Shown here in pieces: positions 1,891-32,542 of a stretch of 64,000 nt of DNA (position 1 is its first letter; every line of letters starts with the position of its first letter). The notes beneath the pieces are model-generated. The model worked only from the letters and a program-made list of their open reading frames with translations, was not told the DNA's origin and did not search any database. Location of the stretch: the NCBI GenBank assembly GCA_965227035.1, contig OZ245724.1, positions 3,072,605-3,136,604 of the forward strand, written 5' to 3'. This stretch comes from Burkholderiaceae bacterium. Its GTDB lineage: Bacteria; Pseudomonadota; Gammaproteobacteria; Burkholderiales; Burkholderiaceae_C. The position numbers and the translations under genes were made by a program.

Positions 1891-1896
1891 AAAAAC

Positions 1897-15788: not shown

Positions 15789-15949
15789 GTTGATGTAACC
15801 GAACGATACAAGAGGGCGACGGGTTCAGCTAGTCGGATTACATATTTATTGCTTCTCTGAGGATTTCTGCCGCGTTGGGCGTGGCTTTTTCGCAGTACGT
15901 TCGCCAAAACGGTTTTCCAGATCGACGCGTTATCTGCGTTCGAACCGAC

Positions 15950-16348
15950 TCACCCCAAGGGCATCTGCCCCAGCTCGATGATGTTCCCATCCGGATCGAC
16001 GAACTGGGCGATCCACCCGCGTGGCGCGATTCCGGGGGGAGACACCGTCGGGCAGATGCCGGTGATGCACTTGGCACCAAGACTCTCCAGGCGGGCAACC
16101 TCCGCCTTTATGTCTTCCACATGGAAGGAAATCAAACATTTGTTGCGATCCCAGCCCTGCTGCTTGCCGACCGATTCCGGCCCGTTGTCCATGCGTCCCA
16201 TCAACTCGAGGATGCAGCTGCCAGTATCGAAAGCAACGATCAACTCGCTGGCCTTCTTGATTTTCAGGCCCATGATGTTTTCGTAGAAGTGCCGCATCGC
16301 GGGCACGTTCTCGGTGTACACCAGCACCCAGCTCAATGGTCCGATCAT
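15950..16348 (-). CDS. VOC (glyoxalase/bleomycin-resistance/dioxygenase) family protein
   Basis: I use the internal start MIGPLSWVLVYTENVPAMRHFYENIMGL (ATG = complement of 16346-16348), giving 132 aa. The longer track ORF would overlap the upstream gene by 300 nt. Confidence 0.75.
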   Translation of the reverse strand: MIGPLSWVLVYTENVPAMRHFYENIMGLKIKKASELIVAFDTGSCILELMGRMDNGPESVGKQQGWDRNKCLISFHVEDIKAEVARLESLGAKCITGICPTVSPPGIAPRGWIAQFVDPDGNIIELGQMPLG

Positions 16349-16365
16349 CGCTTCGCTTTCCAGGT

Positions 16366-16878
16366 TTAAACGGGATACACCAGACAGTTCGGCACCATCA
16401 CAGTATCGAAAATGCAGGTTCGTTCCTTCAGACGCAAACCGTCCGGCTCGCGTACGAATTTGTCGCGGTACTTGCCGACTTGCAATAGACGGGTCGCCTC
16501 GTCGATAAGCGTTTCGTAGATCACGTAGTTCGCTTCCGCGATCACCAGGCCACCTTCCACGCCAGTGACCCGAGTCATCGAAACCGAATGCTGCACATAA
16601 CGCGGCGCAAACATTTCGGTATGCGCGATAGCGTAGGCACGATCTTTGAGCATGCCCATGCCATCGCAAAGCATCAGACAAAGCGGCAGGTTCGATTCGT
16701 AGTTGTCACGCGCGATGACTCGGTAGATTGCATCTTCCGTGAAGAAAGATGGCCACTTCTCTACATCGTTCGCGTCGAGGACTGCTGCGTAATCACAATG
16801 AAATTCTTCGACCAGCAAACGAAGCTCTCGCAGCTCGCTCGCATCGACGCTCAAGGTTTTGGACGTCTCCATTTTCAT
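16366..16878 (-). CDS. aromatic-ring-hydroxylating oxygenase beta (small) subunit, set 1
   Basis: 170 aa, NTF2/SnoaL-like. 4-nt overlap with the preceding alpha subunit gene. Confidence 0.85.
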   Translation of the reverse strand: MKMETSKTLSVDASELRELRLLVEEFHCDYAAVLDANDVEKWPSFFTEDAIYRVIARDNYESNLPLCLMLCDGMGMLKDRAYAIAHTEMFAPRYVQHSVSMTRVTGVEGGLVIAEANYVIYETLIDEATRLLQVGKYRDKFVREPDGLRLKERTCIFDTVMVPNCLVYPV

Positions 16879-18176
16879 AAGCCCATCACCCGGCGGTAGT
16901 GCTGATACATCAACCTGATTGCACGGTCGGTGATCACCGTGTCCGGCGTGTCGTCCTCGCCGCCGAGCGCAGCGATTCCGCTACGCGGCACCGCCCGGTT
17001 GAGACCATCCTGCACGAACTTCAACGCTTCGTGATCGTCGATCCCGAGGAATCCACCCGGTCCGAAGATGTTGTTCTGGCGAAGCCGATGTTGAGTCATC
17101 TCCTCGGTGTCGTCTTCGTAGCCGAACGCTGTCCATACCAGCATGAATTCGGTTGGGCTGGTCGGCACGATCTGTCGCAAGCTAAGGATGTTCATCTGCC
17201 GAAGAAGAATCAGATTCGGCCAGATGGTCATCGCACTGCTGGACCACTCGGAATCGAATTCCGGGAAGTAATCGAGCACGCGGTCGTCCGCGAGTTTCAT
17301 GCCCTGCCTGAACGATTTGATATCGACCTTGTGTTCGTCGAATTCGGGAGCGACCTTGGGCTTGGCATTCAGTAGCGCCGAATGCAGTCCCGAGGGATCG
17401 ACCACGATGTTGGTTTTATTGCCGGCGACGAACAATCCGAATGTCGTGAGATACGTGTGCAGCAAGGTTGCGTGGTAAGGGTCCTTCAGGTTCTCTTGAT
17501 AGAGCTTCCAGTTGCCTTCTAGCGTGTTGCGATGGATGCCCAAAAGTTTGAGCTTCTTGCCGCTGAATATCGTGTCGAATTGCGCGAGCATTTCTTCGCC
17601 GAGGTATTCGGCGAAAGGCGGCGCATGGTCGTCGAAGGTCGCGAAGATCGCACCGCCGCGAACAGTCACATTGAGCTTGCGAAGATGGTGATCTTCCATC
17701 TTGAAATCGGCAGGCATGCCACCCTTGCCCTGCACACCGCGCCGGAACGGTACTGCGGCGAGCGAGCCATCCAGCGCATAGCTCCATTGGTGATACGGGC
17801 ACACGAACAACTCGGTATTGCCACGATAAGTCTTGCAGAACTCCGCGCCACGGTGGGCACACCGGTTCTCGAAGACATGGATCTCGCCCTCCTTATCGCG
17901 CGCCACGATCACCGGCACCGAGCCGATATAGGAGCGGATGTAGTCGCCCGGGTTGGGTACTTCGACTTCGAGTCCGATGTAGCTCCACGCTGCGCCGCCG
18001 AAGATTTTCTGCTGCTCGAGTTCGTAGATGCGTTGGTCGGTGTAGATCCAATCAGGGATCTCCGCCGGATCGTCCGGCCATTTCAGATCGGTCACGTCGT
18101 CGGCCTGCGGGCTGACAGGCAAAGGCGTCAACATGTGAACCTTCTTGGCTCCGATATTTTTTACTGCGGTATCCAT
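16875..18176 (-). CDS. Rieske non-heme iron oxygenase alpha subunit, set 1
   Basis: 433 aa. Rieske motif CAHRGAEFCK-x11-CPYHQW and mononuclear-iron motif NLKDPYHATLLH. Confidence 0.9.
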   Translation of the reverse strand: MDTAVKNIGAKKVHMLTPLPVSPQADDVTDLKWPDDPAEIPDWIYTDQRIYELEQQKIFGGAAWSYIGLEVEVPNPGDYIRSYIGSVPVIVARDKEGEIHVFENRCAHRGAEFCKTYRGNTELFVCPYHQWSYALDGSLAAVPFRRGVQGKGGMPADFKMEDHHLRKLNVTVRGGAIFATFDDHAPPFAEYLGEEMLAQFDTIFSGKKLKLLGIHRNTLEGNWKLYQENLKDPYHATLLHTYLTTFGLFVAGNKTNIVVDPSGLHSALLNAKPKVAPEFDEHKVDIKSFRQGMKLADDRVLDYFPEFDSEWSSSAMTIWPNLILLRQMNILSLRQIVPTSPTEFMLVWTAFGYEDDTEEMTQHRLRQNNIFGPGGFLGIDDHEALKFVQDGLNRAVPRSGIAALGGEDDTPDTVITDRAIRLMYQHYRRVMGL

Positions 18177-18188
18177 CGCGTTCTCGCT

Positions 18189-18554
18189 TCAGGAGGCTGC
18201 GTCGAGAATGTGCTGCGGCGTGCTCGACACAACCTCTGCGTAGGTCGGAATAAATTTGCCGCCGACTATCAGTTTCATGTATTCGAGCTTCGGCCCCATG
18301 CCGAGCTGTTTGCCGATGGAAGCGTGCTCTGCAATATCGCTCCACTCACCCAACAGGTAGAAATGGTCGGGGTTGTTCGTATCGCGGCAGAGAACACCGT
18401 CTTTCACCTGAGCCGATGATTTGTGAAAAGGGTTGTTGTCCGAGTAGTCGAACTCCTCGAACAGCTTGATGAATTCTTCACCGGTACCGGGCAGCACATG
18501 AAAATCGAACACGTGCATGAAGTTGCCTTTGGTGGACAGCGGGACAAGGGCCAT
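18189..18554 (-). CDS. hypothetical protein, possibly ABM/dimeric alpha-beta-barrel monooxygenase-like
   Basis: I chose the start at MALVPLSTKG (ATG = complement of 18552-18554) because AGGAGA lies 6 nt upstream. The track start at 18596 is a TTG. Its size (121 aa) and the ..HFYLLGEWSD.. pattern resemble ABM domains; this assignment is weak. Confidence 0.5.
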   Translation of the reverse strand: MALVPLSTKGNFMHVFDFHVLPGTGEEFIKLFEEFDYSDNNPFHKSSAQVKDGVLCRDTNNPDHFYLLGEWSDIAEHASIGKQLGMGPKLEYMKLIVGGKFIPTYAEVVSSTPQHILDAAS

Positions 18555-18592
18555 GTTGTTCTCCTGAATAAAGTTTGTGTAAGTCGACTCGA

Positions 18593-19978: not shown

Positions 19979-20001
19979 TGATCTGCGACGCTTGTTCCAC
20001 T

Positions 20002-21141
20002 TCAGGAATGCGCGATTTCCATTCGCTGCAGGTAATCGCCGAGCACATGGTGAATCGCGACCTCCATACCCGCCATGGGACCCGCGCGATAGTTGCGCGA
20101 GCTCATCGCTTTTTGCAACGACTCCATCATGAGCCGGTCTTCTTCGAGCACCACGATCTGATAGTCGCGATACACATCGACCTTCGCCTGAAAGTCGTCT
20201 GCAGCAAAAAACTCTTTCGGAAAAAGGTGATAACAAACCACCTGACATTTGTCCGCGCCTTTCGGCCAGATCACCAGGTATCGAATCTGATCGATACGCG
20301 CGAACATGTGGGTGTTCGGCGGCAGACGGAAGGTGCCACCGAAAGAATCGGTGTGCTCTTCCGGCATCCACGGCATACGGCCGAAGAGGCTCTTGCCATC
20401 GGGCGTTGCAGGTGCCGACTGGTAGTAATAGCTGACACCGCCATCCGGGCGAAGATCGACCGCGCTCGCCTTCGCATCGAAATGAGCACCGAAGCTTTTT
20501 GCGTGCAACACGCGTACGTGATAGATATCGAGCAGGTTTTCGACAGCGAATTTCCAGTTGCAATCCAGATCGATCACCAGTTTCGCAGCGAGTTTGCAGT
20601 CTCCCTGTTTCAGATAGTCGAAGTCGCGGCTGTATTGCGCAATGAAATCCGAAAACGGTTGCGGGTTTTTCGAGAAATTGATGAACAGACTGCCACCCCA
20701 GTTCTCGAGCTTCAACTCGGGCAGCTTGCAATTGCTGCTGTCGAACACTTCGCTGTCATCGATCAAAGGAGCGCCGAGCAAAGTGCCATCGAGCTTGTAA
20801 GCCCAGCCGTGATACGGGCAACTGAATTGCCTGCGATTGCCCTGTCCGAAGGCGACTTCGACTCCGCGATGTGCGCAAACGTTGGCAAACGCATGCAGCA
20901 CGCCCTGCTGATCTCTGGTCAGGACCACAGGCTCATCGAGCAGGCGCAAGGTCATGTAGTCGCCGGAATTTTGAAGTTCCTCCTCACGCGCAACGAACAA
21001 CCATTCGCGCATGAAGATTTTTTCTTTCTCGATCTCGTGAATGCCGTGATCCGCGTATATCGAAGGCAGGGCGTGTTTGGCCTTCGACAAAGGCATGCGC
21101 ACCGTTGCCACCTGAGCCGATGTGTAGGGATTGCTTTGCAT
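20002..21141 (-). CDS. Rieske non-heme iron oxygenase, alpha-only type (no cognate beta subunit)
   Basis: 379 aa. CAHRGVEVAFGQGNRRQFSCPYHGW and ENLLDIYHVRVLH. No small-subunit gene is adjacent. Confidence 0.85.
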   Translation of the reverse strand: MQSNPYTSAQVATVRMPLSKAKHALPSIYADHGIHEIEKEKIFMREWLFVAREEELQNSGDYMTLRLLDEPVVLTRDQQGVLHAFANVCAHRGVEVAFGQGNRRQFSCPYHGWAYKLDGTLLGAPLIDDSEVFDSSNCKLPELKLENWGGSLFINFSKNPQPFSDFIAQYSRDFDYLKQGDCKLAAKLVIDLDCNWKFAVENLLDIYHVRVLHAKSFGAHFDAKASAVDLRPDGGVSYYYQSAPATPDGKSLFGRMPWMPEEHTDSFGGTFRLPPNTHMFARIDQIRYLVIWPKGADKCQVVCYHLFPKEFFAADDFQAKVDVYRDYQIVVLEEDRLMMESLQKAMSSRNYRAGPMAGMEVAIHHVLGDYLQRMEIAHS

Positions 21142-21157
21142 CGTATGTCTCTCCTTG

Positions 21158-22153
21158 CTACGCGCTGAGCGTCGTCAAACCGTCCGCGACGATCTGTTGC
21201 CCGTCGACCCAAACAGACTGCGCCGATATCACAGCGTCCGGATGATTTTCTCCACCGCCAGGCACCCACCACGGCAGGCCAAGACCCACCGCATCGCTGC
21301 CCAGGGCTCGCATGTCTTCTACAAAGCAGTCACCGGTAAGGCGCGCTGCCGGATGAACGCCGTGCGTGAAATGAATCACGTATCCGAACAGCCCGCCGCC
21401 AGCCCTAAGCAATGCTTTCTCGAGCAGCGCCCTGTCTGGACCATGACCGGCGACCGACCTGATCCGACCATCGATCTCGAGCGTGAGCAGATGCCTGAGC
21501 GGCGTGTAGAACTCGTGAAAAACAGTCTCGATCACGATCTGGCCGCGCACGCTTTCGATATCGGGGTTCATGCCACACGCGCCGGGGAGCGTGTACAGGC
21601 CAGGCGAATCGGCACTGGTCTTATGGAGACCTTTCGAGGGCGCCAGCGTGTAGGTCACGTCGGTTCCAAGTGCAGTGGTGATGCGCGTAGTCGCGCCCGC
21701 CTTCCTGGCGATGAAGTTCTCGAACCTCGCCATGTCTTCGTACACCGAAGCGAGCGCTCCGCCGCCGAACAATCTTTGCAGGCCACCGGCATTCAGATCG
21801 CTCGACAGCATGTAGCGCACGCGCTTTTTCTCCATCACGCTCGCGTGAAGCTCGGAGCCTGCAATGTAGGGAAACGTGAGGTCGATCCAGACATCGCATT
21901 TTTCGACGGCACCGAGAACCGAAGCGGGAATGAAGGGGTCGGCCAACTTGCCCTGGTAAGGCAACTGCGGAATCGTGATAACTACCGGAAGCACATCCAG
22001 CGCCATTGCAGCCGCACACAGGGCTTGCACCACAGCCTGATCGCCATTCGTATCGGTCGTGATGATCAGGGACTCGCCCGACTTGACGCACATGAACTTC
22101 AGGAATGCATTCGCAGCCGGAAACAATTCGGGGCGCAGCTTCCCGGTGGCCAT
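21158..22153 (-). CDS. M29 aminopeptidase-fold protein, NicX (2,5-dihydroxypyridine 5,6-dioxygenase)-like
   Basis: 331 aa. The C-terminal blocks LTLEIDGRIRSVAGHG, YVIHFTHGVHP and GGGENHPDAVISAQSVWVDGQQIVADG resemble my recollection of P. putida NicX (..ITLEIEKGFITGIHGG.., ..ISHIGWG.., ..HLDIPLRNCDIYLDDKAVVLAGD). Assigned from memory and needs HMM confirmation. Confidence 0.5.
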   Translation of the reverse strand: MATGKLRPELFPAANAFLKFMCVKSGESLIITTDTNGDQAVVQALCAAAMALDVLPVVITIPQLPYQGKLADPFIPASVLGAVEKCDVWIDLTFPYIAGSELHASVMEKKRVRYMLSSDLNAGGLQRLFGGGALASVYEDMARFENFIARKAGATTRITTALGTDVTYTLAPSKGLHKTSADSPGLYTLPGACGMNPDIESVRGQIVIETVFHEFYTPLRHLLTLEIDGRIRSVAGHGPDRALLEKALLRAGGGLFGYVIHFTHGVHPAARLTGDCFVEDMRALGSDAVGLGLPWWVPGGGENHPDAVISAQSVWVDGQQIVADGLTTLSA

Positions 22154-22156
22154 GAT

Positions 22157-22987
22157 TTACTTTCTGGCCTTGTGCGTCTTGCGGTGCGACACATGCCACG
22201 GCAAGCATTTGCGCTCGGCAAAATCGATTGCGTTGAACAGGACCACGCCCAAGATGGACAGGAAGGTGATGGCCGCAAACACCAGCGGTGTCTGATAGGT
22301 ACCCTGCGCCTGCAATACGACAAATCCAAGGCCCTTGTTCGCTCCCACGAACTCACCGACGATGGTGCCGATGAGCGCGAGCGTGATGCCTACTTTCATG
22401 CCGGCAAAAATTCCGGGCAACGCATTCGGAAAACGGATCTTCCAGAACATTTTCAGTTGCGACGAACGATAGGTTCGAACCAGATCGAGCTGCGCCGGAT
22501 CGACCGAGCGCAAGCCCATGACGGTGTCGACCACGATCGGAAATATAGCGATCAGAAACGCCATGAGCACTTTCGATTCGATGTCGGTGCCGATCCAGAT
22601 GATGAACAGCGGCGCGATCGCAATCTTGGGAATCGCGTTGAAGGCAACGAGCGAAGTAAACAGCGTTTTCTCGAGGAACTTCGAATACACGATCGCCACT
22701 GCCAAGGCAATGCCAACGACAACCGCGAGTACGAAACCCGCAAGCGTCGCACCGGCAGTGACTGCGCCATTTCGGATCAAATACATCGGATCAGAGGCGA
22801 TGGTTGCGATGATCATGCTCGGCGTCGGCAACAGGAACGGGCCGATCTTGAACACTCGACACGCACCCTCCCAAAGCAGCAGAAACACGATCATCGCGCC
22901 GGTCATGTAGACCGCGTTCGACATCGACTCGCTGAAATTGCTGGCGCCGTTCGATGCGACGGAAACGTTGGATGGTGTGCTGCTCAT
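22157..22987 (-). CDS. ABC transporter permease (NitT/TauT/SsuC family)
   Basis: 276 aa, 6 TMS, with an EAA-like loop. 4-nt overlap with the ATPase gene. Confidence 0.85.
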   Translation of the reverse strand: MSSTPSNVSVASNGASNFSESMSNAVYMTGAMIVFLLLWEGACRVFKIGPFLLPTPSMIIATIASDPMYLIRNGAVTAGATLAGFVLAVVVGIALAVAIVYSKFLEKTLFTSLVAFNAIPKIAIAPLFIIWIGTDIESKVLMAFLIAIFPIVVDTVMGLRSVDPAQLDLVRTYRSSQLKMFWKIRFPNALPGIFAGMKVGITLALIGTIVGEFVGANKGLGFVVLQAQGTYQTPLVFAAITFLSILGVVLFNAIDFAERKCLPWHVSHRKTHKARK

Positions 22988-23826
22988 ACCGTTGCGTGCC
23001 CCATCTTTTCGAAGATCGTTCGGATGTATTTGCTGTACTCGTTGAATTCTTTTGCGTCACGCGTGAACAGGGTGCGAGGACGCGGCAAATCGATGTCGAT
23101 GACTTCCACGATGCGGCCCGGGTTGCGCGCCATCACCGCCACTCGCGTCGAAAGCAATATCGCTTCGGGAATGCTGTGCGTGATGAACACGACGGTCTTG
23201 TGCGTCTCTGCCCAGAGGCGTTGCAACTCCAGATTGAGCTGATCCCGGGTGAACTCATCCAGCGCGCCGAAGGGCTCGTCCATCAGGAGCAGTGCGGGGT
23301 CGTCCAGAAGAGCGCGGCAGATGGCGGCGCGCTGACGCATGCCACCGGACAACTCCCACGGATGGCGATCGGCATAGCCGCCGAGGCCTACCATCTCGAG
23401 AAGCTGCATCGCTTTGGGCCGTAGCGCCTCGACCTTTTTCTTGTCGCCGAACTCGGCCGGCAACAACACGTTGTCGAGCACGGTACGCCAGTCGAGAAGC
23501 ACATCGCGCTGAAACACGACACCCAGTTTTTCAGGCGGGCCGTTCACCGGTTTACCGCTGATTTCCAGGGTGCCCGAAGAGATGTCTTCGAGACCGGCCA
23601 GACATCGCAGCACCGTGCTCTTGCCGCAACCGCTAGGACCAAGCAGGCTCAGGAACTCGCCCTGCCGCACATCGAGGTTCACATCTTTCAACGCGGTGAG
23701 GTCACCATTCATCGAGTGGTAGACCTTGCCCACGTTTTGCAAGCGAAGGTGAAGCGGCGTCATTTCGGGCGACTCTGCTTCGACCATTTCTTCGCGCGAC
23801 TGCATGCTGACCACGGAACCCATCAT
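22984..23826 (-). CDS. ABC transporter ATP-binding protein (NitT/TauT/SsuB family)
   Basis: I place the start at MMGSVVSMQ.. (ATG = complement of 23824-23826), which shares 1 nt with the upstream TAA. Walker A GPSGCGKST, signature LSGGMRQR, Walker B LLLMDEPFGALD. Confidence 0.8.
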   Translation of the reverse strand: MMGSVVSMQSREEMVEAESPEMTPLHLRLQNVGKVYHSMNGDLTALKDVNLDVRQGEFLSLLGPSGCGKSTVLRCLAGLEDISSGTLEISGKPVNGPPEKLGVVFQRDVLLDWRTVLDNVLLPAEFGDKKKVEALRPKAMQLLEMVGLGGYADRHPWELSGGMRQRAAICRALLDDPALLLMDEPFGALDEFTRDQLNLELQRLWAETHKTVVFITHSIPEAILLSTRVAVMARNPGRIVEVIDIDLPRPRTLFTRDAKEFNEYSKYIRTIFEKMGHATV

Positions 23827-24830: not shown

Positions 24831-24870
24831 GATTGGCCCTCGTGAAGAATTTGTTGATGAACTTCGAAAT

Positions 24871-24900
24871 AAGAACTTTGAGGAACTTTGAGGAACTTTG
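24871..24900. repeat. 10-bp x3 tandem repeat in the FAH-to-binding-protein intercistronic spacer
   Basis: aagaactttg aggaactttg aggaactttg, with a further ggaact at 24911-24916. On the mRNA (minus) strand this is CAAAGUUCCU x3. Confidence 0.8.
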
Positions 24901-24914
24901 AAAACGGCAAGGAA

Positions 24915-25805
24915 CTACGCGGTCTTCTGCCTGACGCTGCCCAACGTGACCGTCTGACGACCCAGCCCCTTGAGTTCAGTCGTCACTTCGTCGCCGGCTT
25001 TGAGCCAGACTTTTTTGTCTTTCGGGTAACCCAGGATCACGCCTTCGGGCGTGCCCATGAAAATCACATCGCCGGGCTTTAGCGTCATGTACTGCGAGAT
25101 GTAGCTCACAGTGAAGGCACATTTGAAAATCATGTCCTTCGTGTTGGAGTTCTGACGTTGCTCGCCATTCACCCAGCATCCGATATCCAGTCCATCCGGA
25201 TCCGGCACTTCGTCTGCGGTCACGACGTAGGGGCCTATAGGTGCGAATCCGTCGGAAGTTTTGCCCAGCATGAACTGCGCGGTACGGATCTGGAGTTCGC
25301 GCGCGCAGATGTCGTTGCCGGTTGCGTAACCGAACACGTAGTCGAGCGCTTCCTTTTCATTCACCTGATAGGCCTCTTTCCCGATGACGATGACCAGCTC
25401 CGCTTCGTAGTCGAACTCGGAGGCGACGTTGTCGGGTAGTGCAATAACCGCGCCATGTCCGGACAGCGCGTTGTTGTATTTGTTGAAAAGGATCGGGAAC
25501 TTCGGCAGCGGCGTATTCGTTTCTTCGGCGTGACGGCGGTAGTTGAAGCCCAGGCAAAGAATCTTCTCGGGCTTGGTGATGGCAGGCAGCCATTTCACCG
25601 TTGAAGCAAGCAGCACATATTGCTCATCGACAACACCGTCGAGCGCCTTGGTCACCGCAGTCAGATCGGGGCCGCCGATCAACTCGTCGGTACAGGTTAC
25701 TGAGACGCCCTTGCCGGTCATGAGGCCGGTAACGTCGATCAACTTGCCATCGACATCTGCGCCAAGGCGCATGGCGCCGCCGTTCGAAAAATTGAAGAAC
25801 TTCAT
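24915..25805 (-). CDS. fumarylacetoacetate hydrolase (FAH) family protein
   Basis: I place the start at MKFFNFSNGG (ATG = complement of 25803-25805), 20 nt after the Bug gene stop. The track start at 25865 is a GTG inside the Bug gene. C-terminal ..GDVIFMGTPEGVILG.. FAH motif. Confidence 0.85.
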   Translation of the reverse strand: MKFFNFSNGGAMRLGADVDGKLIDVTGLMTGKGVSVTCTDELIGGPDLTAVTKALDGVVDEQYVLLASTVKWLPAITKPEKILCLGFNYRRHAEETNTPLPKFPILFNKYNNALSGHGAVIALPDNVASEFDYEAELVIVIGKEAYQVNEKEALDYVFGYATGNDICARELQIRTAQFMLGKTSDGFAPIGPYVVTADEVPDPDGLDIGCWVNGEQRQNSNTKDMIFKCAFTVSYISQYMTLKPGDVIFMGTPEGVILGYPKDKKVWLKAGDEVTTELKGLGRQTVTLGSVRQKTA

Positions 25806-25825
25806 GTCTTTTGATTCATTGGTAA

Positions 25826-26812
25826 TTAAGGAGTGATCTTTGCGGTCTTGATCACTTGCGACCACTTGTCAGATTCCGACTTGACGAACGCGGCGCTGTC
25901 AGCGGTGCTGGTGTAGCCCGCGACTTCGCCCGACTTCTCGAGCGCTTCGATAGTGGCCGACGCGGTGAGAACCTTCTTGGCTTCTGCGTTCAGCTTTTGC
26001 ACGATGGCGTCTGGAGTTCCTGCTGGAACGAAGAGGCCGGTCCAGAAGAGGACTTCGAAATTCTTGATGCCTGATTCAGCCACTGTCGATACGTTGCCGA
26101 ATGCTGGGGGACGCATCGGGCCCGACGTGGCGATCGCGCGAATGCGGCCGTCTTTCACCGCCGGTCCCGCAGCTGCGATGGTGCTGAACGCCATCTGCAC
26201 ATGACCCGCCATCAAGTCGGCCATGGCAGGCCCGCTGCCCTTGTAAGGAACATGTGTGAGCGGCACGCCGCTACGCAGTGCAAGCAATTCGCCCGCCATG
26301 TGCGGCGTAGTGCCGACGCCCGCCGATGCAAAACTCACCTTGTCGGGGTTTGCCTTCGCGTAGGCGAGCAGGGAAGGAATGTCGGTGATCGGTAGTTGCG
26401 CATTCACCGACAGCACCAGAGGCGATGCAGTGAGCAAGGAAACTGGACGAAGGTCCTTCAACTGGAAGGGCAGATTCGCCTGCAGTGCCGGGTTGATCAC
26501 GACGGAAGGATCAATCACCAATAGCGTCAAACCGTCCGGCGCCGATTGCGCCACGAACTGCGCGCCGATCATTCCGCCTGCGCCGGGACGGTTGTCCACT
26601 ACTACTGGTACGCCCATGACCTCGCCCAGACGCTGCGCCATTGCACGGCCCACGAAATCGACTGCACCGCCAGGCGAGTAGGGCACGACTACCTTGATGG
26701 TGTGACCCGATGGGTAAGCCGCCGATTGCGCCATCGAGACAGAAGAAAACGATGCAGCAAACACTGTGCATGCTGCAAGCAGGAGCGTCTTGACGGGAAG
26801 GCGGCGATTCAT
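25826..26812 (-). CDS. Bug-family (TctC-like) tripartite tricarboxylate transporter substrate-binding protein
   Basis: 328 aa with a signal peptide. The AYPSGHTIKVVVPYSPGGAVDFVGRAMAQRL and VPYKGSGPAMADLMAGHV motifs are typical of Bug proteins. Confidence 0.9.
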   Translation of the reverse strand: MNRRLPVKTLLLAACTVFAASFSSVSMAQSAAYPSGHTIKVVVPYSPGGAVDFVGRAMAQRLGEVMGVPVVVDNRPGAGGMIGAQFVAQSAPDGLTLLVIDPSVVINPALQANLPFQLKDLRPVSLLTASPLVLSVNAQLPITDIPSLLAYAKANPDKVSFASAGVGTTPHMAGELLALRSGVPLTHVPYKGSGPAMADLMAGHVQMAFSTIAAAGPAVKDGRIRAIATSGPMRPPAFGNVSTVAESGIKNFEVLFWTGLFVPAGTPDAIVQKLNAEAKKVLTASATIEALEKSGEVAGYTSTADSAAFVKSESDKWSQVIKTAKITP

Positions 26813-26837
26813 GGGGAGCTCCTGGAGGGACGTGGGT

Positions 26838-27374
26838 TTAGAAAGGTTGCGTCAGCGCTGGAAAGCTCTGATCGCAATTGGTGAGTTCGACCTTCTTGAG
26901 GACGATCTCGAATCCTTGCGCGACAGGGCGCAGCACATGGCGATAGCGACCACCGAAGAATCGGCGTGGTGCCGTGAAACGGTCTTCGAGCATGATGAAT
27001 TTCGACGTGACTGCGACGAGCCCGTCGTCGTGCTCTTTCTGCGTCGTGTCGATGTTGAAGCTGGACACCACACGCACGCAGGACGACGCCGGATCCTGAC
27101 AATGGATCATCTCGTGCGCGAGCCGCGCAGCACGCGTTTTGAGAATCGTCTTGTCGTCGTAGAAGATCGACACGTTGCTCAGGAAATCGAGCTGTCCGCG
27201 CTCTGCGGGCACCCAGTAGGCACCGTCTTCTGCGAACAGGTTTACCCAGGCGTCGAAGTCCTGACGATCGAGCAGATCGGTCTCATGCTCGACGAAGGTG
27301 CGCAGGGTGTGGATGTCTGCAGCGGAAGTTACAGCAGAAGGTACGGCGGGGGCGAGTTTGAGTGTGGTGGTCAT
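26838..27374 (-). CDS. aromatic-ring-hydroxylating oxygenase beta (small) subunit, set 2
   Basis: I place the start at MTTTLKLAP (ATG = complement of 27372-27374), preceded by GGGAGA at 7-nt spacing. An alternative ATG at 27389 overlaps the alpha-subunit stop. NTF2-like, 178 aa. Confidence 0.8.
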   Translation of the reverse strand: MTTTLKLAPAVPSAVTSAADIHTLRTFVEHETDLLDRQDFDAWVNLFAEDGAYWVPAERGQLDFLSNVSIFYDDKTILKTRAARLAHEMIHCQDPASSCVRVVSSFNIDTTQKEHDDGLVAVTSKFIMLEDRFTAPRRFFGGRYRHVLRPVAQGFEIVLKKVELTNCDQSFPALTQPF

Positions 27375-27388
27375 CGTTGTTTCTCCCA

Positions 27389-28693
27389 TCACGCGCTCAT
27401 CAGGTCGCGCCATGCGTAATGACGCATGCGTTGGCCGACTTCGCTGGAGCGCGGGCCGAACTGAACGCCCTGCCCTTCGTCGATTTCATCGCCCAGGCCC
27501 TTGGCAACCAGCACCCAGTCGGTTCCCTGTGTTTGCAGGCCTTCCTGGCAACGCTCGAAACCTTCCAGATCGTCCGACTGGATGAACGATGCGGCTGCGT
27601 GGCTGATGTTCACGAATCGAACCAGGTCTTTCGAGATTTTTTCCGGAGCACCCTTGAGCTTCACCGGCCAGATCTCGACTTCGGTCAGATCTACGGCAAG
27701 CGGTCGAATGACGCGAATCGATGTCTGGGCCATCACGATGTCTACGTTGGGAAACAAGGTCATCGAATGGCGACGGTTTTTCAGGATGTCCTTGGTGCGG
27801 TCTTCGCCGTAAGCGTTCACCATGAGTGCGCGGTACTCATCGAAGTCGCCGCCGGATTGCTCCTTGTCGAATAGCGATGCTTCCGAGCTATGGCCCTTGA
27901 GGAATCCGCGAACACCGGTCTGCGCAACTATGGCTTCGCCATTGGGTGCGAAGAACATCGCCTCGCCGCCCTTGCCGCCGGGACGACGCTGGAACTGACG
28001 ACCGTCCGGACCCACTGTGGATCCATGACATGCAGCCGGGTGGTACATGTCGGCCATGTTGTCCATTTGCAGTTTCCAGTTGCCGCGATAGTGATAGCGG
28101 TGGCAGCCCGACACGAGCTCGATTTGTCCGATGGGCGAACGATCGACGATCTCATCGATACCTGCGCGTGCGGGGCCGAGGAAATCGAGCAGCGGTTCCA
28201 CGTCGGGATTCAGCGACGCAAAGATGAAGCCGCGATAGTTTTCTACACGCGGCAATTGCGCCATGCCGAATTGCGGCTCCTGAAGAACTGCCTCGGGAAA
28301 GTCGCTGCGCATAGGAACGCCCGCGAGCTCGCCGTTCGGACGAAAGCCCCAGCCGTGATACATGCACGTGAACGCCTTGGCATTGCCACGAACCTTGTTG
28401 AGCACCTTCGAGCCGCGATGACCGCAGCGGTTGAATAGCACGTAGGTTTTGCCATCGGTATGACGGCTGAGCACCATCGACTGACGCGCGACATTGGTGG
28501 TGTAGTAATCACCCGGATTCGGCACCAGGCTTTCGTGTCCGATGTAGAGCCACACCTTGCCGAAGATCTTGGTCATCTCGGCTTCGAACACCTGCGGGTC
28601 GACGTAGATGCCGCGATGAACGCGATCCAGCTGAACCATGCTGTGAAATTGCTCGGGCGTATACGACGTCTGAGGAATGGGTGAGTAAGTCAT
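27389..28693 (-). CDS. Rieske non-heme iron oxygenase alpha subunit, set 2
   Basis: 434 aa. CGHRGSKVLNKVRGNAKAFTCMYHGW and DNMADMYHPAACH. Confidence 0.9.
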   Translation of the reverse strand: MTYSPIPQTSYTPEQFHSMVQLDRVHRGIYVDPQVFEAEMTKIFGKVWLYIGHESLVPNPGDYYTTNVARQSMVLSRHTDGKTYVLFNRCGHRGSKVLNKVRGNAKAFTCMYHGWGFRPNGELAGVPMRSDFPEAVLQEPQFGMAQLPRVENYRGFIFASLNPDVEPLLDFLGPARAGIDEIVDRSPIGQIELVSGCHRYHYRGNWKLQMDNMADMYHPAACHGSTVGPDGRQFQRRPGGKGGEAMFFAPNGEAIVAQTGVRGFLKGHSSEASLFDKEQSGGDFDEYRALMVNAYGEDRTKDILKNRRHSMTLFPNVDIVMAQTSIRVIRPLAVDLTEVEIWPVKLKGAPEKISKDLVRFVNISHAAASFIQSDDLEGFERCQEGLQTQGTDWVLVAKGLGDEIDEGQGVQFGPRSSEVGQRMRHYAWRDLMSA

Positions 28694-28741
28694 GTTGCTT
28701 GTCTGGTGTTGTCGTTATCGGATTGCGCTGCGTTTCGCTTC

Positions 28742-30106
28742 TCAGCTTTCGAAAAAGCCCTGGCCGGTCGTTTCGTCGTAGCGAAAGAGTCCGTTCAGAA
28801 AAATCTTGTGCTTCTCGTAGTACATGCGTTTGCGTGGAGCAGGCGGTGTGCGATCGATCGGCTCGCCGCCCTTGAAAATGAAATCGAACTTCGATGGCTT
28901 TTGCAGCACCGTGATGTCTTTGGTCGGATCGCCGTCGATGACCAGGATGTCGGCGTAACGCCCAGCTTCGAGCTTGCCCACCTTGTTGCCGAATCTTTTG
29001 AAAATCTTCGTCGCACCCAGCGTGGTGGCATGGATCGCTTCGAGCGGTGTGAAGCCCAGGTACTGCACGAAGATTTCCGCTTCGCGCGCGTGCCAATGTC
29101 CATACGGCACCGGCGACCAACCCGATTCGGATCCCTGCACGAACGGCACTCCGGCCTTGTGTGCCTTGGTGAGATTCACGACCGCAGCATCGACTTCGCG
29201 TTGGAATGCGTCGGTGCTCGACACGCCGGCAGATGCGCCCTTCGCTTCGCAAATATTTACGAGCAGGGGCAAGGTCGGGATGATCACCGAGCCGTTCTTC
29301 AATGCGTTCTCGATACCCTCGTCGTCGATGTACGACGCATGAAAAAGAATGTCGAATCCTGCGCGCGCGGCATCCAGTGCAGAGTCACGAGTGCGGGCAT
29401 GCACCGAACACATCTTGCCGAGACGATGAGCTTCGTTGGCGATGAGTTGCAACTCGGGCAGGCTCATGGCCGAGCCATCGAGCGAGTCAGGCGTGATCAG
29501 TGAATCGCTTGAGCCGGACACCTTGATGCAGTCGACACCGTCTTTCACCTGATAGCGAATCTGCGAAATGATGTCGTCGTTCGAACGCATCAGCACACCG
29601 GCTTGACCAGGCGGGAACTGCATTTCGTTGGGGAAAGAATCTTCCAGCCCCTGATTGTTCGTGAGCTGTCTGCCCGACACCGCAAAACGCGGACCATCAA
29701 ACATGCCGCTGTCGATCGAATCGCGAACCGATTGCGCAATGTTGTAAGTGGTGGCCGCATCGAAGGCGCTGGTCACACCTGCCTGCAACACCTTCTTGGC
29801 GTTCCAGACTGCCTTGAGCGTGCGGAATTCGACTGGTGTGTAGAGGGCCAGTTCCTCTTCCGAACGCGCTTCACCGAATGAAATATGGGTATGTCCGTCG
29901 ATGATGCCCGGCATGACGGTGCGGCCTGGGAGATCGATGACTTCGTATTCGGTCGTCTTGTATTCCGGCGGCAAGGCAGCCGCTTCGCCGACCCATGCAA
30001 TGGTCTCGCCAGTCGTCGCCATTGCGCCGTTTGCGATCGGCGCGTTCAGGCTGCCATCGACGATTTTTCCGTAGAAGACGTACCCTTTTTTAATTCCGTT
30101 GGTCAT
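28742..30106 (-). CDS. metal-dependent amidohydrolase (PF01979-like)
   Basis: I use the internal start MTNGIKKGYVFYGKIVDG (codon 153 of the 606-aa track ORF; ATG = complement of 30104-30106), which overlaps the upstream stop as ATGA. PGIIDGHTHISFGE (HxH) motif. Confidence 0.8.
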   Translation of the reverse strand: MTNGIKKGYVFYGKIVDGSLNAPIANGAMATTGETIAWVGEAAALPPEYKTTEYEVIDLPGRTVMPGIIDGHTHISFGEARSEEELALYTPVEFRTLKAVWNAKKVLQAGVTSAFDAATTYNIAQSVRDSIDSGMFDGPRFAVSGRQLTNNQGLEDSFPNEMQFPPGQAGVLMRSNDDIISQIRYQVKDGVDCIKVSGSSDSLITPDSLDGSAMSLPELQLIANEAHRLGKMCSVHARTRDSALDAARAGFDILFHASYIDDEGIENALKNGSVIIPTLPLLVNICEAKGASAGVSSTDAFQREVDAAVVNLTKAHKAGVPFVQGSESGWSPVPYGHWHAREAEIFVQYLGFTPLEAIHATTLGATKIFKRFGNKVGKLEAGRYADILVIDGDPTKDITVLQKPSKFDFIFKGGEPIDRTPPAPRKRMYYEKHKIFLNGLFRYDETTGQGFFES

Positions 30107-30936
30107 GCGACGCTCGCGCTTTCTGTTGTCTCGAAGAAGTTGTTCGCCAAGCTGATGAACTTTCCCGGATGCTCGAACGCCACCGAGTGCGAGCAATTGC
30201 CGAGCATCACGACATCGGCTTGGGGAATCGACCGGGAGAGAACCTCGGTGAGTTCGGGTGGGAACGCGAGATCGTTGCGGCCATGCACCATGAGCACGTC
30301 GCAATGGATCTTTCCGAGCTCGTCGGCAGAGAGCACCGCGGCATCGACGAACTTGCGTTTGTCGCCACCGAACATCTGTCCGAAATAGCCTTCGTATTCG
30401 CCGTCGAACAGCACCTTCTCGCGGTTGAGCAAATACGCTTCGTCGATCAGCGACTTGTCGTGGATCAGGTTTTCCGCCGCACGCTGCAACTCGGCGCGAT
30501 TCTTCGGAAATGTCCAGGTCTGCTCGGTCGCGACGTTTGGTGTGAACACGATGCCCATGCACCCGGTGGTCATTACCTTGACGATGCGCGAATCGAGCGC
30601 GGCCAGCTTCAGCGCCATCGCACCGGAAATCGAATGACCGATGAGCCCGATCGGGCCGGCAGGCATTTTCGCGATCATGGCCTGCGTCTGCGCGATCCAG
30701 AGAGCCATGTCGAAATACGGAGGAGCCGGCTTTCGCTTCGATTTACCGAACCCGATCAAGTCCATTGCATAGACATGAAAACGGCTCGATAGCGGTTCAA
30801 GCACCTTGCGCCAGTTGCCGATGGAAGACACGCCCGGTCCGGAGCCATGCAACATCAGGATAGGGAACGCATCGGAAGCGCCGCCTTCGAGGTAGTGAAC
30901 CTCGAGTCCTTCGAAAACGAAATTCTTTTCCTGCAC
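30103..30936 (-). CDS. alpha/beta hydrolase (C-C bond / meta-cleavage-product or N-formylmaleamate deformylase-type)
   Basis: Motifs HGSGPGVS and nucleophile elbow GHSISGAMAL. I prefer the GTG start at 30936 (GAAGG 6 nt upstream, 13 nt after the RidA stop). The track start at 30963 is a TTG that overlaps ridA. Confidence 0.8.
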   Translation of the reverse strand: MQEKNFVFEGLEVHYLEGGASDAFPILMLHGSGPGVSSIGNWRKVLEPLSSRFHVYAMDLIGFGKSKRKPAPPYFDMALWIAQTQAMIAKMPAGPIGLIGHSISGAMALKLAALDSRIVKVMTTGCMGIVFTPNVATEQTWTFPKNRAELQRAAENLIHDKSLIDEAYLLNREKVLFDGEYEGYFGQMFGGDKRKFVDAAVLSADELGKIHCDVLMVHGRNDLAFPPELTEVLSRSIPQADVVMLGNCSHSVAFEHPGKFISLANNFFETTESASVA

Positions 30937-30949
30937 GTCCGACCTTCGA

Positions 30950-31357
30950 TTAGAGCGCGGCAATGGCCTGAACCTCGACCAGGAAGGGCTCCTGCACCAG
31001 GCGATCCACCATCAACAGTGTGTTGGGCGGATAGACGCCGCTTGTAAAGATCTTTGGAAACTCGCGTAGCCGATAGCTCATGAACTTCGGAATGTCCTGC
31101 GAATGCACCAAGTAAGTCGTGAACTGCACAACATTGGCCCATCCCGCACCAGCGGACTGCAACGCCTTTTCGATGTTGGCGAACACTTGCACGCATTGCG
31201 CGTCGAAATCGTCGACTCCGACAATCTGCCCCGCCTTGTTTGCCGACAGTTGTCCGGAAATGAAGAGCAACTCCGAACACTTGACCCGAGTCATCTGTGA
31301 ATACTGGCCGAGGGGCTCTCCCAGGGTGTCGGGGTTGTAGATCTTGATATCCGGCAT
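30950..31357 (-). CDS. RidA/YjgF/UK114-family enamine/imine deaminase
   Basis: I place the start at MPDIKIYNPDTLGEPLGQYSQ (ATG = complement of 31355-31357), with GAGGAG upstream. 135 aa, ending ..PFLVEVQAIAAL, typical of the family. Confidence 0.85.
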   Translation of the reverse strand: MPDIKIYNPDTLGEPLGQYSQMTRVKCSELLFISGQLSANKAGQIVGVDDFDAQCVQVFANIEKALQSAGAGWANVVQFTTYLVHSQDIPKFMSYRLREFPKIFTSGVYPPNTLLMVDRLVQEPFLVEVQAIAAL

Positions 31358-31480
31358 CGAAATTGCTCCTCGTGAGGGAAAGAAGGTTCTGTAAAAACCG
31401 ATGGCAAAAGATAAGAGCAAGGCAAATCGATGTCAGCCGAATCTTTCTCACTTGCCAGATGAGCTGGATTCAACTGCCCC

Positions 31481-32482
31481 ATGAACACAAGAACTCCCCC
31501 ACTCAATGCGCTGAAGGTTTTCGAAGCTGCGGCGCGACTGAAGAGCTTCAAAAAGGCTGCGGAGGAGCTGCACGTGACGCCGGCTGCGGTAAGTCATCAG
31601 CTCAGCCAGCTCGAGGCGATGCTGGGTGTGATGCTGTTCAAGCGGGTGAATCAGGGCATCGAGCTGACGCCATCGGCGCGGCTATGCCTGCCCAAACTTC
31701 AGGAGGGACTCGATTGCGTTCGCGAGTCGATCGAGCAGATACGCCAGCACGCAACATCGGAAACCATCACCGTTGCAGCGTCGCCGAGTTTTGCGATGCG
31801 CTGGCTGATGCCGCGCTTGCACCGTTTTATCGTCGCGCATCCGGAATTCGATGTGCAGGTGTCCACGAAGATCGGGCCTTTCCGGGGCGGGCGCGGCGAG
31901 CGAAGCAATGCGCTGGGCATTCACGCGTGCGCGGAAGAAGCCGATATGGTGCTCATGTACGGCAGCGGTCACTACCCTGATTTGCGCGTCGAGAAATTGA
32001 TGAGTCTTGCAGTGACACCCATGTGCAGTCCGCAATTGCTGACGGGCGACAAGGCCCTGAAAACACCGGAAGATCTGCGCAATCATCTGTTGCTGCACGA
32101 CGATCGCGGCATGCTTTACTCCAACAAATCGTTCTGGCAACTGTGGCTCGAAAGAGCCGGCGTGCAGGGCGTCAATGCCGAGCAGGGCCCGCGCTTCACG
32201 CATGCCTGGCTCGCGCTTGCAGCCACGCTCGAACACGGCGGCGTCGTTGCGAGCACCCCGCTGCTCGCCGCAGAAGAAATCGCGACCGGCCGTCTGATCA
32301 CGCCATTCGACATCGAAGTGCCTCTGGAATCTGGCTATCACATGGTGAGCACAGAGCAGGCCTATAAACGCGACGATGTGTCGACGTTCAGGGCCTGGTT
32401 GATCGATGAGGCGAATGCCTCGATCGCGTCGATGGCGCCGGTGCCTGATGGGAAGCCGGCGGCTTTGTACGCGGTGGGTTGA
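31481..32482 (+). CDS. LysR-family transcriptional regulator (GcvA-like), divergent from the 17-gene operon
   Basis: 333 aa. HTH region PPLNALKVFEAAARLKSFKKAAEELHVTPAAVSHQLSQLE. Confidence 0.9.
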   Translation: MNTRTPPLNALKVFEAAARLKSFKKAAEELHVTPAAVSHQLSQLEAMLGVMLFKRVNQGIELTPSARLCLPKLQEGLDCVRESIEQIRQHATSETITVAASPSFAMRWLMPRLHRFIVAHPEFDVQVSTKIGPFRGGRGERSNALGIHACAEEADMVLMYGSGHYPDLRVEKLMSLAVTPMCSPQLLTGDKALKTPEDLRNHLLLHDDRGMLYSNKSFWQLWLERAGVQGVNAEQGPRFTHAWLALAATLEHGGVVASTPLLAAEEIATGRLITPFDIEVPLESGYHMVSTEQAYKRDDVSTFRAWLIDEANASIASMAPVPDGKPAALYAVG

Positions 32483-32500
32483 GCCTAGAACTTGGCGCCG

Positions 32501-32542
32501 TTTTCAGGACAAAACACTGGTTTAGGTGTTTTATCCTGAAAA
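32501..32542. terminator. long AT-rich hairpin between convergent genes (possible bidirectional terminator)
   Basis: TTTTCAGGACAAAACAC-tggtttag-GTGTTTTATCCTGAAAA: 16 of 17 positions pair, with an 8-nt loop. A second small hairpin ACGCGTCG-n15-CGACGCGT followed by TTT lies at 32563-32596. Confidence 0.35.

Follow-up and report, generated by a model that had tools for sequence, protein, structure and literature searches.

A two-module gene cluster encoding three Rieske oxygenases and a NicX-fold protein in a Burkholderiaceae bacterium, with amide-bearing N-heteroaromatic acids as candidate substrates

Here we describe a catabolic gene cluster from a Burkholderiaceae bacterium (GenBank assembly GCA_965227035.1, contig OZ245724.1), located at 15950-32482 of a 64,000-nt stretch of DNA (positions 1-64,000, hereafter the window). 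The cluster consists of 17 consecutive minus-strand genes, running from ridA to a gene for a VOC-fold protein, together with a divergent gene for a LysR-type regulator. On balance, we favour its interpretation as an intact, co-directional catabolic cluster of two conserved modules, which are joined head to tail at an 84-nt spacer and act on amide-bearing N-heteroaromatic acids. Module B (24915-32482) comprises the genes for LysR, RidA, an α/β-hydrolase, an amidohydrolase, a Rieske αβ oxygenase, a Bug-type receptor and a fumarylacetoacetate-hydrolase-family (FAH) enzyme. Module A (15950-24830) comprises the genes for an ATP-binding cassette (ABC) importer, a NicX-like protein, an α-only Rieske oxygenase, an amidase, an ABM-fold protein, a second Rieske αβ oxygenase and the VOC protein.

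To our knowledge, bacterial breakdown pathways have been established for only a few pyridine-type compounds, a class with members among vitamins, alkaloids, agrochemicals and drugs as well as spore dipicolinate. Alongside a diverged NicX-fold enzyme, the cluster described here encodes two amide hydrolases and three Rieske oxygenases. What is reported below on gene families, folds, catalytic motifs and patterns of conservation is directly observed.

Organization of the cluster

By open reading frame (ORF) listing and start-codon analysis, the 17 genes between 31357 and 15950 are all present, as the initial annotation of this stretch had stated; they are intact, and none resembles a pseudogene. 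For the α/β-hydrolase gene, a GTG start at 30936 is favoured over TTG at 30963. The intergenic distances from ridA to the VOC gene are 13, -4, 48, -1, 25, 20, 84, -1, -4, 3, 16, 23, 38, 12, -4 and 17 nt. These recomputed values agree with the earlier description of gaps of at most 48 nt apart from one 84-nt repeat-containing spacer (24831-24914), and the overlaps listed at 16875-78, 22984-87, 23826 and 30103-06 are all there. The LysR gene is divergent from ridA, the first structural gene, with 123 bp between them; its placement and its domains (HTH_1 and LysR_substrate) bear out the earlier call. Pfam backs 15 of the 17 family assignments plus LysR, and the NicX-like and ABM-like assignments are backed by structure models.

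The 84-nt spacer contains a perfect 10-bp tandem repeat in 2.9 copies (CAAAGTTCCT on the coding strand, 24873-24901), a motif that occurs nowhere else in the window and might bind a regulator or be left over from slippage or recombination. In a consensus scan, no promoter-like or terminator-like site was found in this spacer. Two sigma-70-like matches were found in 15000-33000, one intergenic (5' of ridA) and the other within the Bug receptor gene. Terminator-like hairpins are about as frequent as expected by chance (19 found, 17.7 expected), none of them in any spacer, and a scan for near-palindromic T-N11-A sites reported none. GC content and GC content at third codon positions (GC3) have no clear break between the modules. 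The common strand, the short gaps, the one intergenic promoter-like site and the lack of spacer terminators are indirect evidence that all 17 genes may form a single transcription unit under LysR control.

Beyond the last gene, a GC-rich hairpin followed by TTTTT is present at 15869-15885 (+), within the 161 bp that separate the VOC gene from a gene for a HDOD-domain protein (14952-15788). Because the VOC and HDOD genes are both on the minus strand, the hairpin is wrongly oriented to end the cluster transcript.

Conservation of the two modules

Relatives of module B were reached through homologues of its Rieske α subunit (Rieske α1). In Pigmentiphaga sp. NML080357 (locus L090), module B stands alone as a divergent LysR gene plus seven genes in the exact order of the window, with identities from LysR to FAH of 51, 68, 55, 72, 71, 52, 33 and 44%; the LysR gene occupies the same divergent position beside the first structural gene, and the FAH gene is again the last. 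A metagenome contig (L086) carries ridA through tctC at 51-80% identity, including RidA at 78% and the Bug receptor at 64%, and a NicX-like gene (61%) lies directly beside these module B genes on the opposite strand. Across the relatives, the α/β-hydrolase orthologues have 268-272 aa and 55-65% identity, the amidohydrolase is 70-72% identical to its counterparts in L086 and L090, and Rieske β1 is 51-52% identical to those in L086, L090 and L087. Locus L087 encodes a 72%-identical Rieske α1, a β subunit, a VOC protein, an amidohydrolase, two amidases, an α-only Rieske oxygenase, a NicX-like protein and a molybdenum hydroxylase, the Rieske α1 homologue lying <8 kb from the NicX-like, amidase, VOC and amidohydrolase genes.

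In contig L086, a gene of the AtzD/TrzD family (cyanuric acid/barbiturate ring-opening amidohydrolases) at 4688-5779 and genes for a Bmp-type ABC importer precede the module. This setting is a further hint of N-heterocycle chemistry around module B.

The ten-gene content of module A recurs in Hydrogenophaga (L004), Terripilifer ovatus (L008) and a Burkholderiaceae metagenome-assembled genome (MAG; L006), and in part in Pusillimonas (L005), at 50-74% identity (39-40% for the amidase) and with a different gene order in each genome. The importer's binding protein is 50-68% identical in L004, L005 and L008, and the VOC protein is co-conserved at 61% in L004, 58% in L008 and 50% in L087. In tblastn searches, no gene of the FAH-to-LysR set accompanies module A in L004, L005, L006 or L008. 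In Pigmentiphaga litoralis, the ABC importer, ABM and Rieske αβ genes occur alone, beside a different LysR gene. Module A is itself composed of smaller units, namely the importer/ABM/Rieske αβ set and the NicX-like/α-only Rieske pair. The initial annotation had described the 17 genes as a LysR-controlled super-operon. By the separate conservation of the modules (Pigmentiphaga L090; L004, L006 and L008), they do not make up one evolutionary or functional unit.

A plasmid origin was considered and rejected: whole-region megablast against PLSDB matched only the ABC ATPase gene, in short stretches of 72-97% identity. In a metagenome scan for the module junction with the FAH protein, 80 loci were recovered, all 49-62% identical and none with other cluster genes.

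The 17 genes might instead constitute one pathway, co-transcribed from the ridA promoter under LysR control and acting sequentially on a single compound with two amide/imine functions that enters through either uptake system. The single strand, gaps of at most 84 nt, the position of the only intergenic promoter-like site and the absence of spacer terminators fit such a pathway, as do the module B genes beside a NicX-like gene in L086 and the Rieske α1 homologue near one in L087. Module A alone has no α/β-hydrolase (deformylase-type) step, which module B could supply, and α/β-hydrolase and RidA genes adjoin the NicX-like/Rieske pair in other genomes. We nevertheless consider a single pathway somewhat unlikely: the modules occur apart (B in L090 and L089; A in L004, L008 and L093), each is equipped with a separate uptake system, co-conservation of the LysR gene is confined to module B (the module A core of P. 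litoralis adjoining a different LysR gene), and the module boundary coincides exactly with the only long, repeat-bearing spacer. The promoter and terminator consensus scans are themselves weak evidence, with terminator-like sites at chance level.

The NicX-like protein and its Rieske partner

The NicX-like protein gave no Pfam hit at E<=0.001; its homologues carry Pfam family PF26233 (NicX). Its AlphaFold2 (AF2) model (mean predicted local distance difference test score, pLDDT, 91.8) best matches P. putida NicX (PDB 7CN3; E 3.5e-20, template modelling (TM) score 0.73, 17-18% identity), followed by M29 aminopeptidases (TM 0.63). A NicX homologue from a Variovorax plasmid, scoring 274 bits against 7CN3, served as reference for profile comparison, and hhalign aligned the family profile to it with a probability of 96% and 20% identity. 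NicX binds iron through His265, His318 and Asp320, plus an unusual fourth ligand, Ser302 (PMC7910607). The first three align to His261, His304 and Asp306 of the NicX-like protein, which are invariant in 35 homologues. The NicX-like protein is a distant paralogue that retains the metal triad and, at 17-20% identity, is not a NicX orthologue. The earlier proposal of a NicX-type ring opener stands at the level of the fold, although identity is low and the serine ligand is replaced.

The neighbourhood of the NicX-like gene was examined in a scan with one genome per species, in which the best 80 of 225 loci were searched by tblastn with all 18 window proteins. Neighbour families derived from ORF clustering were used only where Pfam confirmed them, as the clustering lost genes to long antisense ORFs. 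An α-only Rieske homologue lies within 300 bp of the NicX-like gene on the same strand in 52 of the 80 loci, and the loci with the pair span Binatia, Alphaproteobacteria, Acidimicrobiia and Burkholderiales. Genes repeatedly found beside it encode xanthine-dehydrogenase-type molybdenum hydroxylases (molybdenum subunit in 29/80 loci), amidases, Amidohydro_2 proteins and luciferase-like oxygenases. In Agrobacterium T29, the pair is accompanied by genes for an α/β-hydrolase, a racemase-type isomerase and a FAD monooxygenase. In Variovorax SRS16, it lies 7 kb from a nic-type gene set that contains the NicX homologue scoring 274 bits and, as annotated, genes for an α/β-hydrolase, an isochorismatase, a FAD monooxygenase and molybdenum-hydroxylase subunits. 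The presence in SRS16 of the NicX-like/Rieske pair as well as a true NicX cluster shows that the two have separate functions.

Molybdenum hydroxylases of the xanthine-dehydrogenase type are hallmarks of N-heterocycle hydroxylation, and the conservation of the pair together with these neighbours supports N-heterocycle chemistry. We tentatively propose that the pair may represent an unrecognised, widespread route for N-heteroaromatic ring opening in which a Rieske oxygenase replaces the flavoprotein hydroxylase, the window cluster being a complete, self-importing version with an added amide-processing module. The pair is the most interesting element of the cluster, being widespread across several phyla: its substrate, once solved, would annotate hundreds of genes and provide a second branch for a ring-cleavage family that now has one characterised activity. 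Should the cluster instead prove to degrade a common aromatic amide by a variant route, its value would lie mainly in better annotation.

Rieske oxygenases and the nature of the substrate

The CxH-x(15-19)-CxxH and DxxHxxxxH motifs are intact in all three Rieske α subunits, which are only 28-33% identical to one another and are therefore not recent duplicates. For Rieske α1, the best PDB match is Variovorax IadD (7YLS/9O71, 269 bits), and the BenA model scores 253 bits against a cut-off of 781. For the α subunit of the second αβ enzyme (Rieske α2), the best scores are those of NagG (7C8Z, 409 bits) and TphA2 (300 bits), and the AndAc model scores 398 bits with a cut-off of 750. The best PDB match of the α-only enzyme is CntA, in its N-terminal part only.

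Several observations weigh against the favoured interpretation. The nearest characterised relatives of the Rieske αβ enzymes act on homocyclic acids (salicylate, anthranilate, benzoate and indole-3-acetate). Neither the NicX-like protein nor its 35-sequence profile has a PDB sequence match in phmmer and profile searches to E<=10; the Ser302 ligand of NicX aligns to Gly289, and the substrate-binding stretch around Glu177/His189 aligns to non-conserved residues and a gap. The NicX-like protein could therefore act on another substrate, or have hydrolase chemistry like its M29 relatives. The stand-alone module B of Pigmentiphaga L090 has no NicX-like gene within 10 kb, only one for a 367-aa cupin protein. 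The synteny check advised by the initial annotation found the order of module B kept in Pigmentiphaga, but that of module A shuffled and the full 17-gene arrangement nowhere else (PLSDB megablast, NicX-like-anchored scan and FAH metagenome scan). No protein of the cluster attains an NCBIfam equivalog cut-off, so every enzymatic step is assigned at family level only; the LysR protein, which passes the GcvA subfamily model (296.3 bits, cut-off 288), is the sole cluster protein to pass a model. The cluster (15950-32482) has no molybdenum hydroxylase and no decarboxylase. Finally, no Fer2, FNR-type or Pyr_redox-type reductase or ferredoxin domain was found by Pfam in about 60 window ORFs, a set made up of the 17 cluster genes, the LysR gene and, among some 40 flanking ORFs, most of those of at least 150 aa. 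For electron transfer, the three oxygenases must depend on proteins encoded elsewhere.

Alternatively, the cluster might degrade aromatic amides or acids of the homocyclic kind, such as anilides, compounds resembling salicylamide or anthranilamide, or conjugates of aroyl groups with amino acids. The NicX-fold protein would then be a metallo-hydrolase or act on an intermediate similar to hydroquinone or gentisate. The affinities of Rieske α2 to salicylate 5-hydroxylase and AndAc and of Rieske α1 to IadD and BenA speak for this, as does the loss of the serine ligand and substrate-binding residues of NicX. Aryl acylamidase is among the best PDB relatives of the amidase, and the relatives of the amidohydrolase (ochratoxinase and Cc2672) cleave acyl-amino-acid amides. 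FAH enzymes are typical of gentisate and homogentisate routes, and the cupin protein of Pigmentiphaga, encoded ~6 kb from the ridA end of module B, is of bicupin size. However, the only known occurrences of the NicX fold are in pyridine-ring cleavage and in M29 peptidases, the NicX-like/Rieske pair is repeatedly found beside xanthine-dehydrogenase-type molybdenum hydroxylases and also near nic-type genes, and by Pfam the cluster encodes neither a cis-diol dehydrogenase nor a dioxygenase for catechol, gentisate or protocatechuate. Homocyclic substrates hence appear unlikely to us, and amide-bearing N-heteroaromatic acids of the pyridine or pyridone type are the most likely substrate class.

Amide hydrolases and accessory proteins

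The signature amidase keeps the GGSSGG and AKDN motifs and scores 439.5 bits against the PRK06169 model (cut-off 506); its nearest PDB relatives are aryl acylamidase and GatA. The best PDB relatives of the amidohydrolase are the L-Arg carboxypeptidase Cc2672 (143 bits), ochratoxinase and LlADH. The top NCBIfam matches of the α/β-hydrolase are meta-cleavage-product hydrolases (HsaD, 85 bits), far under the cut-off. The earlier outline of the chemistry as amide/imine hydrolysis combined with hydroxylation and ring opening is backed by these gene families.

In a Hydrogenophaga MAG (CAZAPJ010000017.1; L001, 13138-15585), the amidase of the module A counterpart is an 815-aa fusion whose C-terminal domain (NAD_binding_1 plus 2Fe-2S) is of the phthalate-dioxygenase-reductase type, which points to a physical or functional coupling of amidase and Rieske oxygenases. 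The window amidase has no reductase domain, and tblastn with the fused Hydrogenophaga domain found no match or remnant in the window.

The 121-aa protein gave no Pfam hit at E<=0.001 (PF03992, 19.3 bits, cut-off 23.1). It has 409 homologues, with 62-100% identity among the 120 matches listed, and some of them carry PF03992. Its AF2 model (pLDDT 91.1) is a ferredoxin-like barrel; the best Foldseek E-value is 6.8e-5, and the 20 best matches (TMq 0.45-0.60) are nearly all ABM-fold proteins. By synteny of the loci compared, the ABM-fold protein gene always adjoins a Rieske αβ pair of the salicylate-5-hydroxylase type. Two small genes were considered as ABM relatives and set aside: a 121-aa gene beside the NicX-like gene in locus L084 has no homology, its equal length being coincidental, and a 125-aa gene in L087 is not detectably related.

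Transport

Two uptake systems had been proposed, and both are found: a Bug/TctC-type receptor in module B and a complete NitT/TauT-type ABC importer in module A. The two binding proteins give a direct experimental handle on the substrates. The Bug receptor is an orphan within the cluster. Elsewhere in the window, genes for a two-component system (response regulator 41885-42577, sensor kinase 42596-44128) are followed by those for TctB (44215-44799) and TctA (44816-46372), which are likely to be the membrane partner of this receptor. A second Bug receptor is encoded at 50093-51079.

The nearest solved relative of the importer's binding protein is the pyrimidine-binding ThiY, a very distant match (63 bits). 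The top NCBIfam matches of the importer are the SsuA family, TauB/SaoA and SsuC/SaoP, and these raise the question of whether module A might be a system for uptake and desulfonation of arylsulfonates or other organosulfonates. In keeping with such a role, Rieske dioxygenases of this general group remove sulfonate or amino substituents from ortho-substituted aromatic acids, and arylsulfonate degraders are known in Hydrogenophaga and related Alcaligenaceae. The importer scores are, however, far under cut-off (73 bits with a cut-off of 163; 219 bits with a cut-off of 357), the nearest solved binding protein binds a pyrimidine, no sulfite-handling genes were seen, and the amidase and NicX-like genes would be left unexplained. 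We regard a sulfonate system as highly improbable.

Predicted catabolic route

The order of steps given here, like the substrate class, is what we infer from the gene families. In module B, an aromatic carboxylate or acyl-amide would be taken up through a tripartite tricarboxylate transporter (TTT) system, its amide bond hydrolysed and the ring then oxygenated. The opened ring may next undergo C-C or formamide hydrolysis, enamine/imine deamination by RidA and acylpyruvate-type hydrolysis by the FAH enzyme. In module A, the NitT/TauT-type ABC system would import a second or related compound, from which the signature amidase would remove the amide. The ring would be hydroxylated by the second Rieske αβ enzyme, with the ABM-fold protein as its putative obligatory partner, and by the α-only Rieske monooxygenase, and then opened by the NicX-fold paralogue as a predicted Fe(II) dioxygenase. 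Read as two linked routes, the steps would lead from amide hydrolysis and Rieske hydroxylations through NicX-type ring opening and hydrolysis of formyl and amide products to deamination by RidA and cleavage by FAH. The features concerned are collected in Table 1.

Table 1. Genes and other features of the cluster at 15950-32482, in order from the regulator to the last gene of module A
Feature	Coordinates	Strand	Basis of assignment
LysR-type regulator, GcvA subfamily	31481..32482	+	Pfam HTH_1 and LysR_substrate
Sigma-70-like promoter match upstream of ridA	31408..31436	-	9/12 hexamer positions; consensus match only
RidA/YjgF-family protein, predicted enamine/imine deaminase	30950..31357	-	Pfam Ribonuc_L-PSP, 73.6 bits
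α/β-fold hydrolase	30103..30936	-	Pfam Abhydrolase_1, 79.6 bits
Metal-dependent amidohydrolase, carboxypeptidase/ochratoxinase type	28742..30106	-	Pfam Amidohydro_1; HxH motif present
Rieske oxygenase α subunit 1, BenA/IadD-like	27389..28693	-	Pfam Rieske and Ring_hydroxyl_A
Rieske oxygenase β subunit 1	26838..27389	-	Pfam Ring_hydroxyl_B, 83.6 bits
Bug/TctC-family periplasmic receptor	25826..26812	-	Pfam TctC, 248 bits
FAH-family enzyme, last gene of module B	24915..25805	-	Pfam FAA_hydrolase, 226.7 bits
Spacer at the module B/module A junction	24831..24914	-	84 nt; holds CAAAGTTCCT x 2.9
NMT1/SsuA-type substrate-binding protein of ABC importer	23826..24830	-	Pfam NMT1, 127 bits
ABC importer ATPase	22984..23826	-	Pfam ABC_tran; TauB/SaoA-like, 219 bits, under cut-off
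ABC importer permease	22157..22987	-	Pfam BPD_transp_1; SaoP/SsuC-like, under cut-off
NicX-fold (M29-like) protein, predicted Fe(II) ring-opening dioxygenase	21158..22153	-	Structure model, profile comparison
α-only Rieske oxygenase	20002..21141	-	Pfam Rieske, Ring_hydroxyl_A and VanA_C
Amidase-signature amidase, 461 aa	18593..19978	-	Pfam Amidase, 275 bits
121-aa ABM-fold protein	18189..18554	-	Structure model; Pfam ABM E 0.0013, under cut-off
Rieske oxygenase α subunit 2, salicylate-5-hydroxylase/AndAc type	16875..18176	-	Structure-database and model matches
Rieske oxygenase β subunit 2	16366..16878	-	Pfam Ring_hydroxyl_B/SnoaL_4; AndAd 125.7 bits, cut-off 230
VOC/glyoxalase-fold protein, single-domain, 132 aa, last gene of module A	15950..16348	-	Pfam Glyoxalase/Glyoxalase_2

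Neighbouring genes

A second catabolic cluster occupies 606-12015 of the window on the minus strand, with a divergent gene for a GntR/FCD regulator (11326-12015). It encodes a FAH-family enzyme (10371-11228), a FAD_binding_3 monooxygenase (8840-10201), a PrpB/PEP-mutase-family lyase (7902-8843) and an isochorismatase hydrolase (7282-7905) that shares 39% identity with its counterpart in the nic-type set of Variovorax SRS16. An Asp/Glu-racemase/AMDase-type protein (6480-7220) and a Liv-type ABC importer, which has two binding proteins, are also encoded. These enzyme types resemble the lower maleamate pathway, and the cluster may therefore cooperate with the NicX-like gene.

A complete resistance-nodulation-division (RND) efflux system is encoded immediately 3' of the LysR gene on the minus strand (outer-membrane factor, 32601-34154; AcrB-type pump, 34051-37296; membrane-fusion protein, 37358-38605). 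Further catabolic genes at 47245-53675 encode an enoyl-CoA hydratase, a family III CoA-transferase, a glutathione S-transferase (GST), a Bug receptor, an α/β-hydrolase, an Amidohydro_2 protein and a CMD-family protein; the best NCBIfam match of the Amidohydro_2 protein is 4-sulfomuconolactone hydrolase (171 bits, cut-off 500). The end of the window (56116-64000) looks like a defence or mobile island. Its GC content falls from ~0.58 to 0.51-0.53 after 60 kb, and it encodes a HipA-type toxin kinase (56116-57534) and a GmrSD-type restriction endonuclease (59870-61774), as well as a protein (62289-63275) whose nucleoside 2-deoxyribosyltransferase-like match is weak.

Comparison with known systems

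The logic of the cluster seems to parallel the picolinate and nicotinate pathways, with Rieske enzymes replacing flavoprotein and molybdenum hydroxylases. The closest system in logic is the pic pathway of Alcaligenes faecalis JQ135, which comprises the molybdenum dehydrogenase PicA, the four-component PicB, the decarboxylase PicC, and PicD, PicE, PicF and PicG. PicB, the hydroxylase of the picolinate pathway, was likened by its authors to the salicylate-5-hydroxylase/AndAc group. In both systems, an oxygenase of this Rieske type would hydroxylate a pyridine acid and a NicX-type dioxygenase would open the ring, with hydrolases (α/β-fold deformylase and amidase) following; the two hosts are probably of the same order (Burkholderiales). 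However, by Pfam, 15950-32482 contains no PicA, PicC, PicB ferredoxin or reductase component or Amidohydro_2 protein. The ring opener is a distant paralogue (17-20% identity) rather than an orthologue of PicD/NicX, the α-only Rieske, ABM, VOC, RidA and FAH genes are extra, and the genes are ordered differently. The cluster is not collinear with pic.

The nic maleamate pathway of Pseudomonas putida KT2440 comprises NicAB, NicC, NicX, NicD, NicF and NicE. The likeness lies in the NicX fold with its His/His/Asp metal site and in the accompanying α/β-hydrolase and amide hydrolases. In contrast to nic, Ser302 is replaced by Gly and the Glu177/His189 region is not conserved in the NicX-like protein, and a Rieske monooxygenase occupies the place of the flavoprotein NicC. 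Compared with the nic-type set of Variovorax SRS16, the sole nic comparator, the cluster has no molybdenum hydroxylase, FAD monooxygenase or isochorismatase.

Auxin degradation in Variovorax (iad) involves IadCDE, the CoA ligase IadF, the thiolase IadG, the dehydrogenase IadH and IadI/J. Among solved structures, IadD is the most similar to Rieske α1, although its 269 bits are well under orthologue level, and the cluster has only the IadD-like α and β subunits, with no CoA ligase, thiolase, dehydrogenase or formamidase-like gene. The dip cluster, which is GntR-controlled and has six transcription units, differs in regulator type and transcription-unit layout, the two features on which it was compared. 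Three further pathways were considered and set aside: the lum pathway for riboflavin/lumichrome has different enzymes, and the hom (homarine) and naa (nicotinamide) pathways are set apart by their descriptions only, in which Rieske enzymes are never mentioned.

A diverged copy of one of the characterised pathways (picolinate pic, nicotinate nic, dipicolinate dip or auxin iad) would share the general pic/nic logic of hydroxylation, NicX-type cleavage and subsequent hydrolysis, and the score of Rieske α1 with IadD could be read in the same way. It is nonetheless extremely unlikely, given the absence of the PicA/NicAB molybdenum hydroxylases, the PicC decarboxylase and NicC, the low identity of the NicX-like protein to NicX, the GntR control and six transcription units of dip, the CoA ligase, thiolase and dehydrogenase that iad needs and the cluster does not have, and the absence of any match attaining an equivalog model. 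The earlier statement that the gene set matches no named pathway thus holds for pic and iad, which are not collinear with it, and for dip and nic as far as these were compared.

Rieske αβ2 belongs to the NagGH/AndAcAd group by its scores (409 and 398 bits), the latter well under the AndAc equivalog cut-off of 750 bits. It differs from this group in always occurring with a dedicated ABM-fold protein and a NitT/TauT-type importer, and in not being followed by a gentisate or catechol dioxygenase. None of the three Rieske oxygenases, the two amide hydrolases or the NicX-fold enzyme is orthologous to a studied enzyme, and the cluster represents an uncharacterised version of a well-known type of system.

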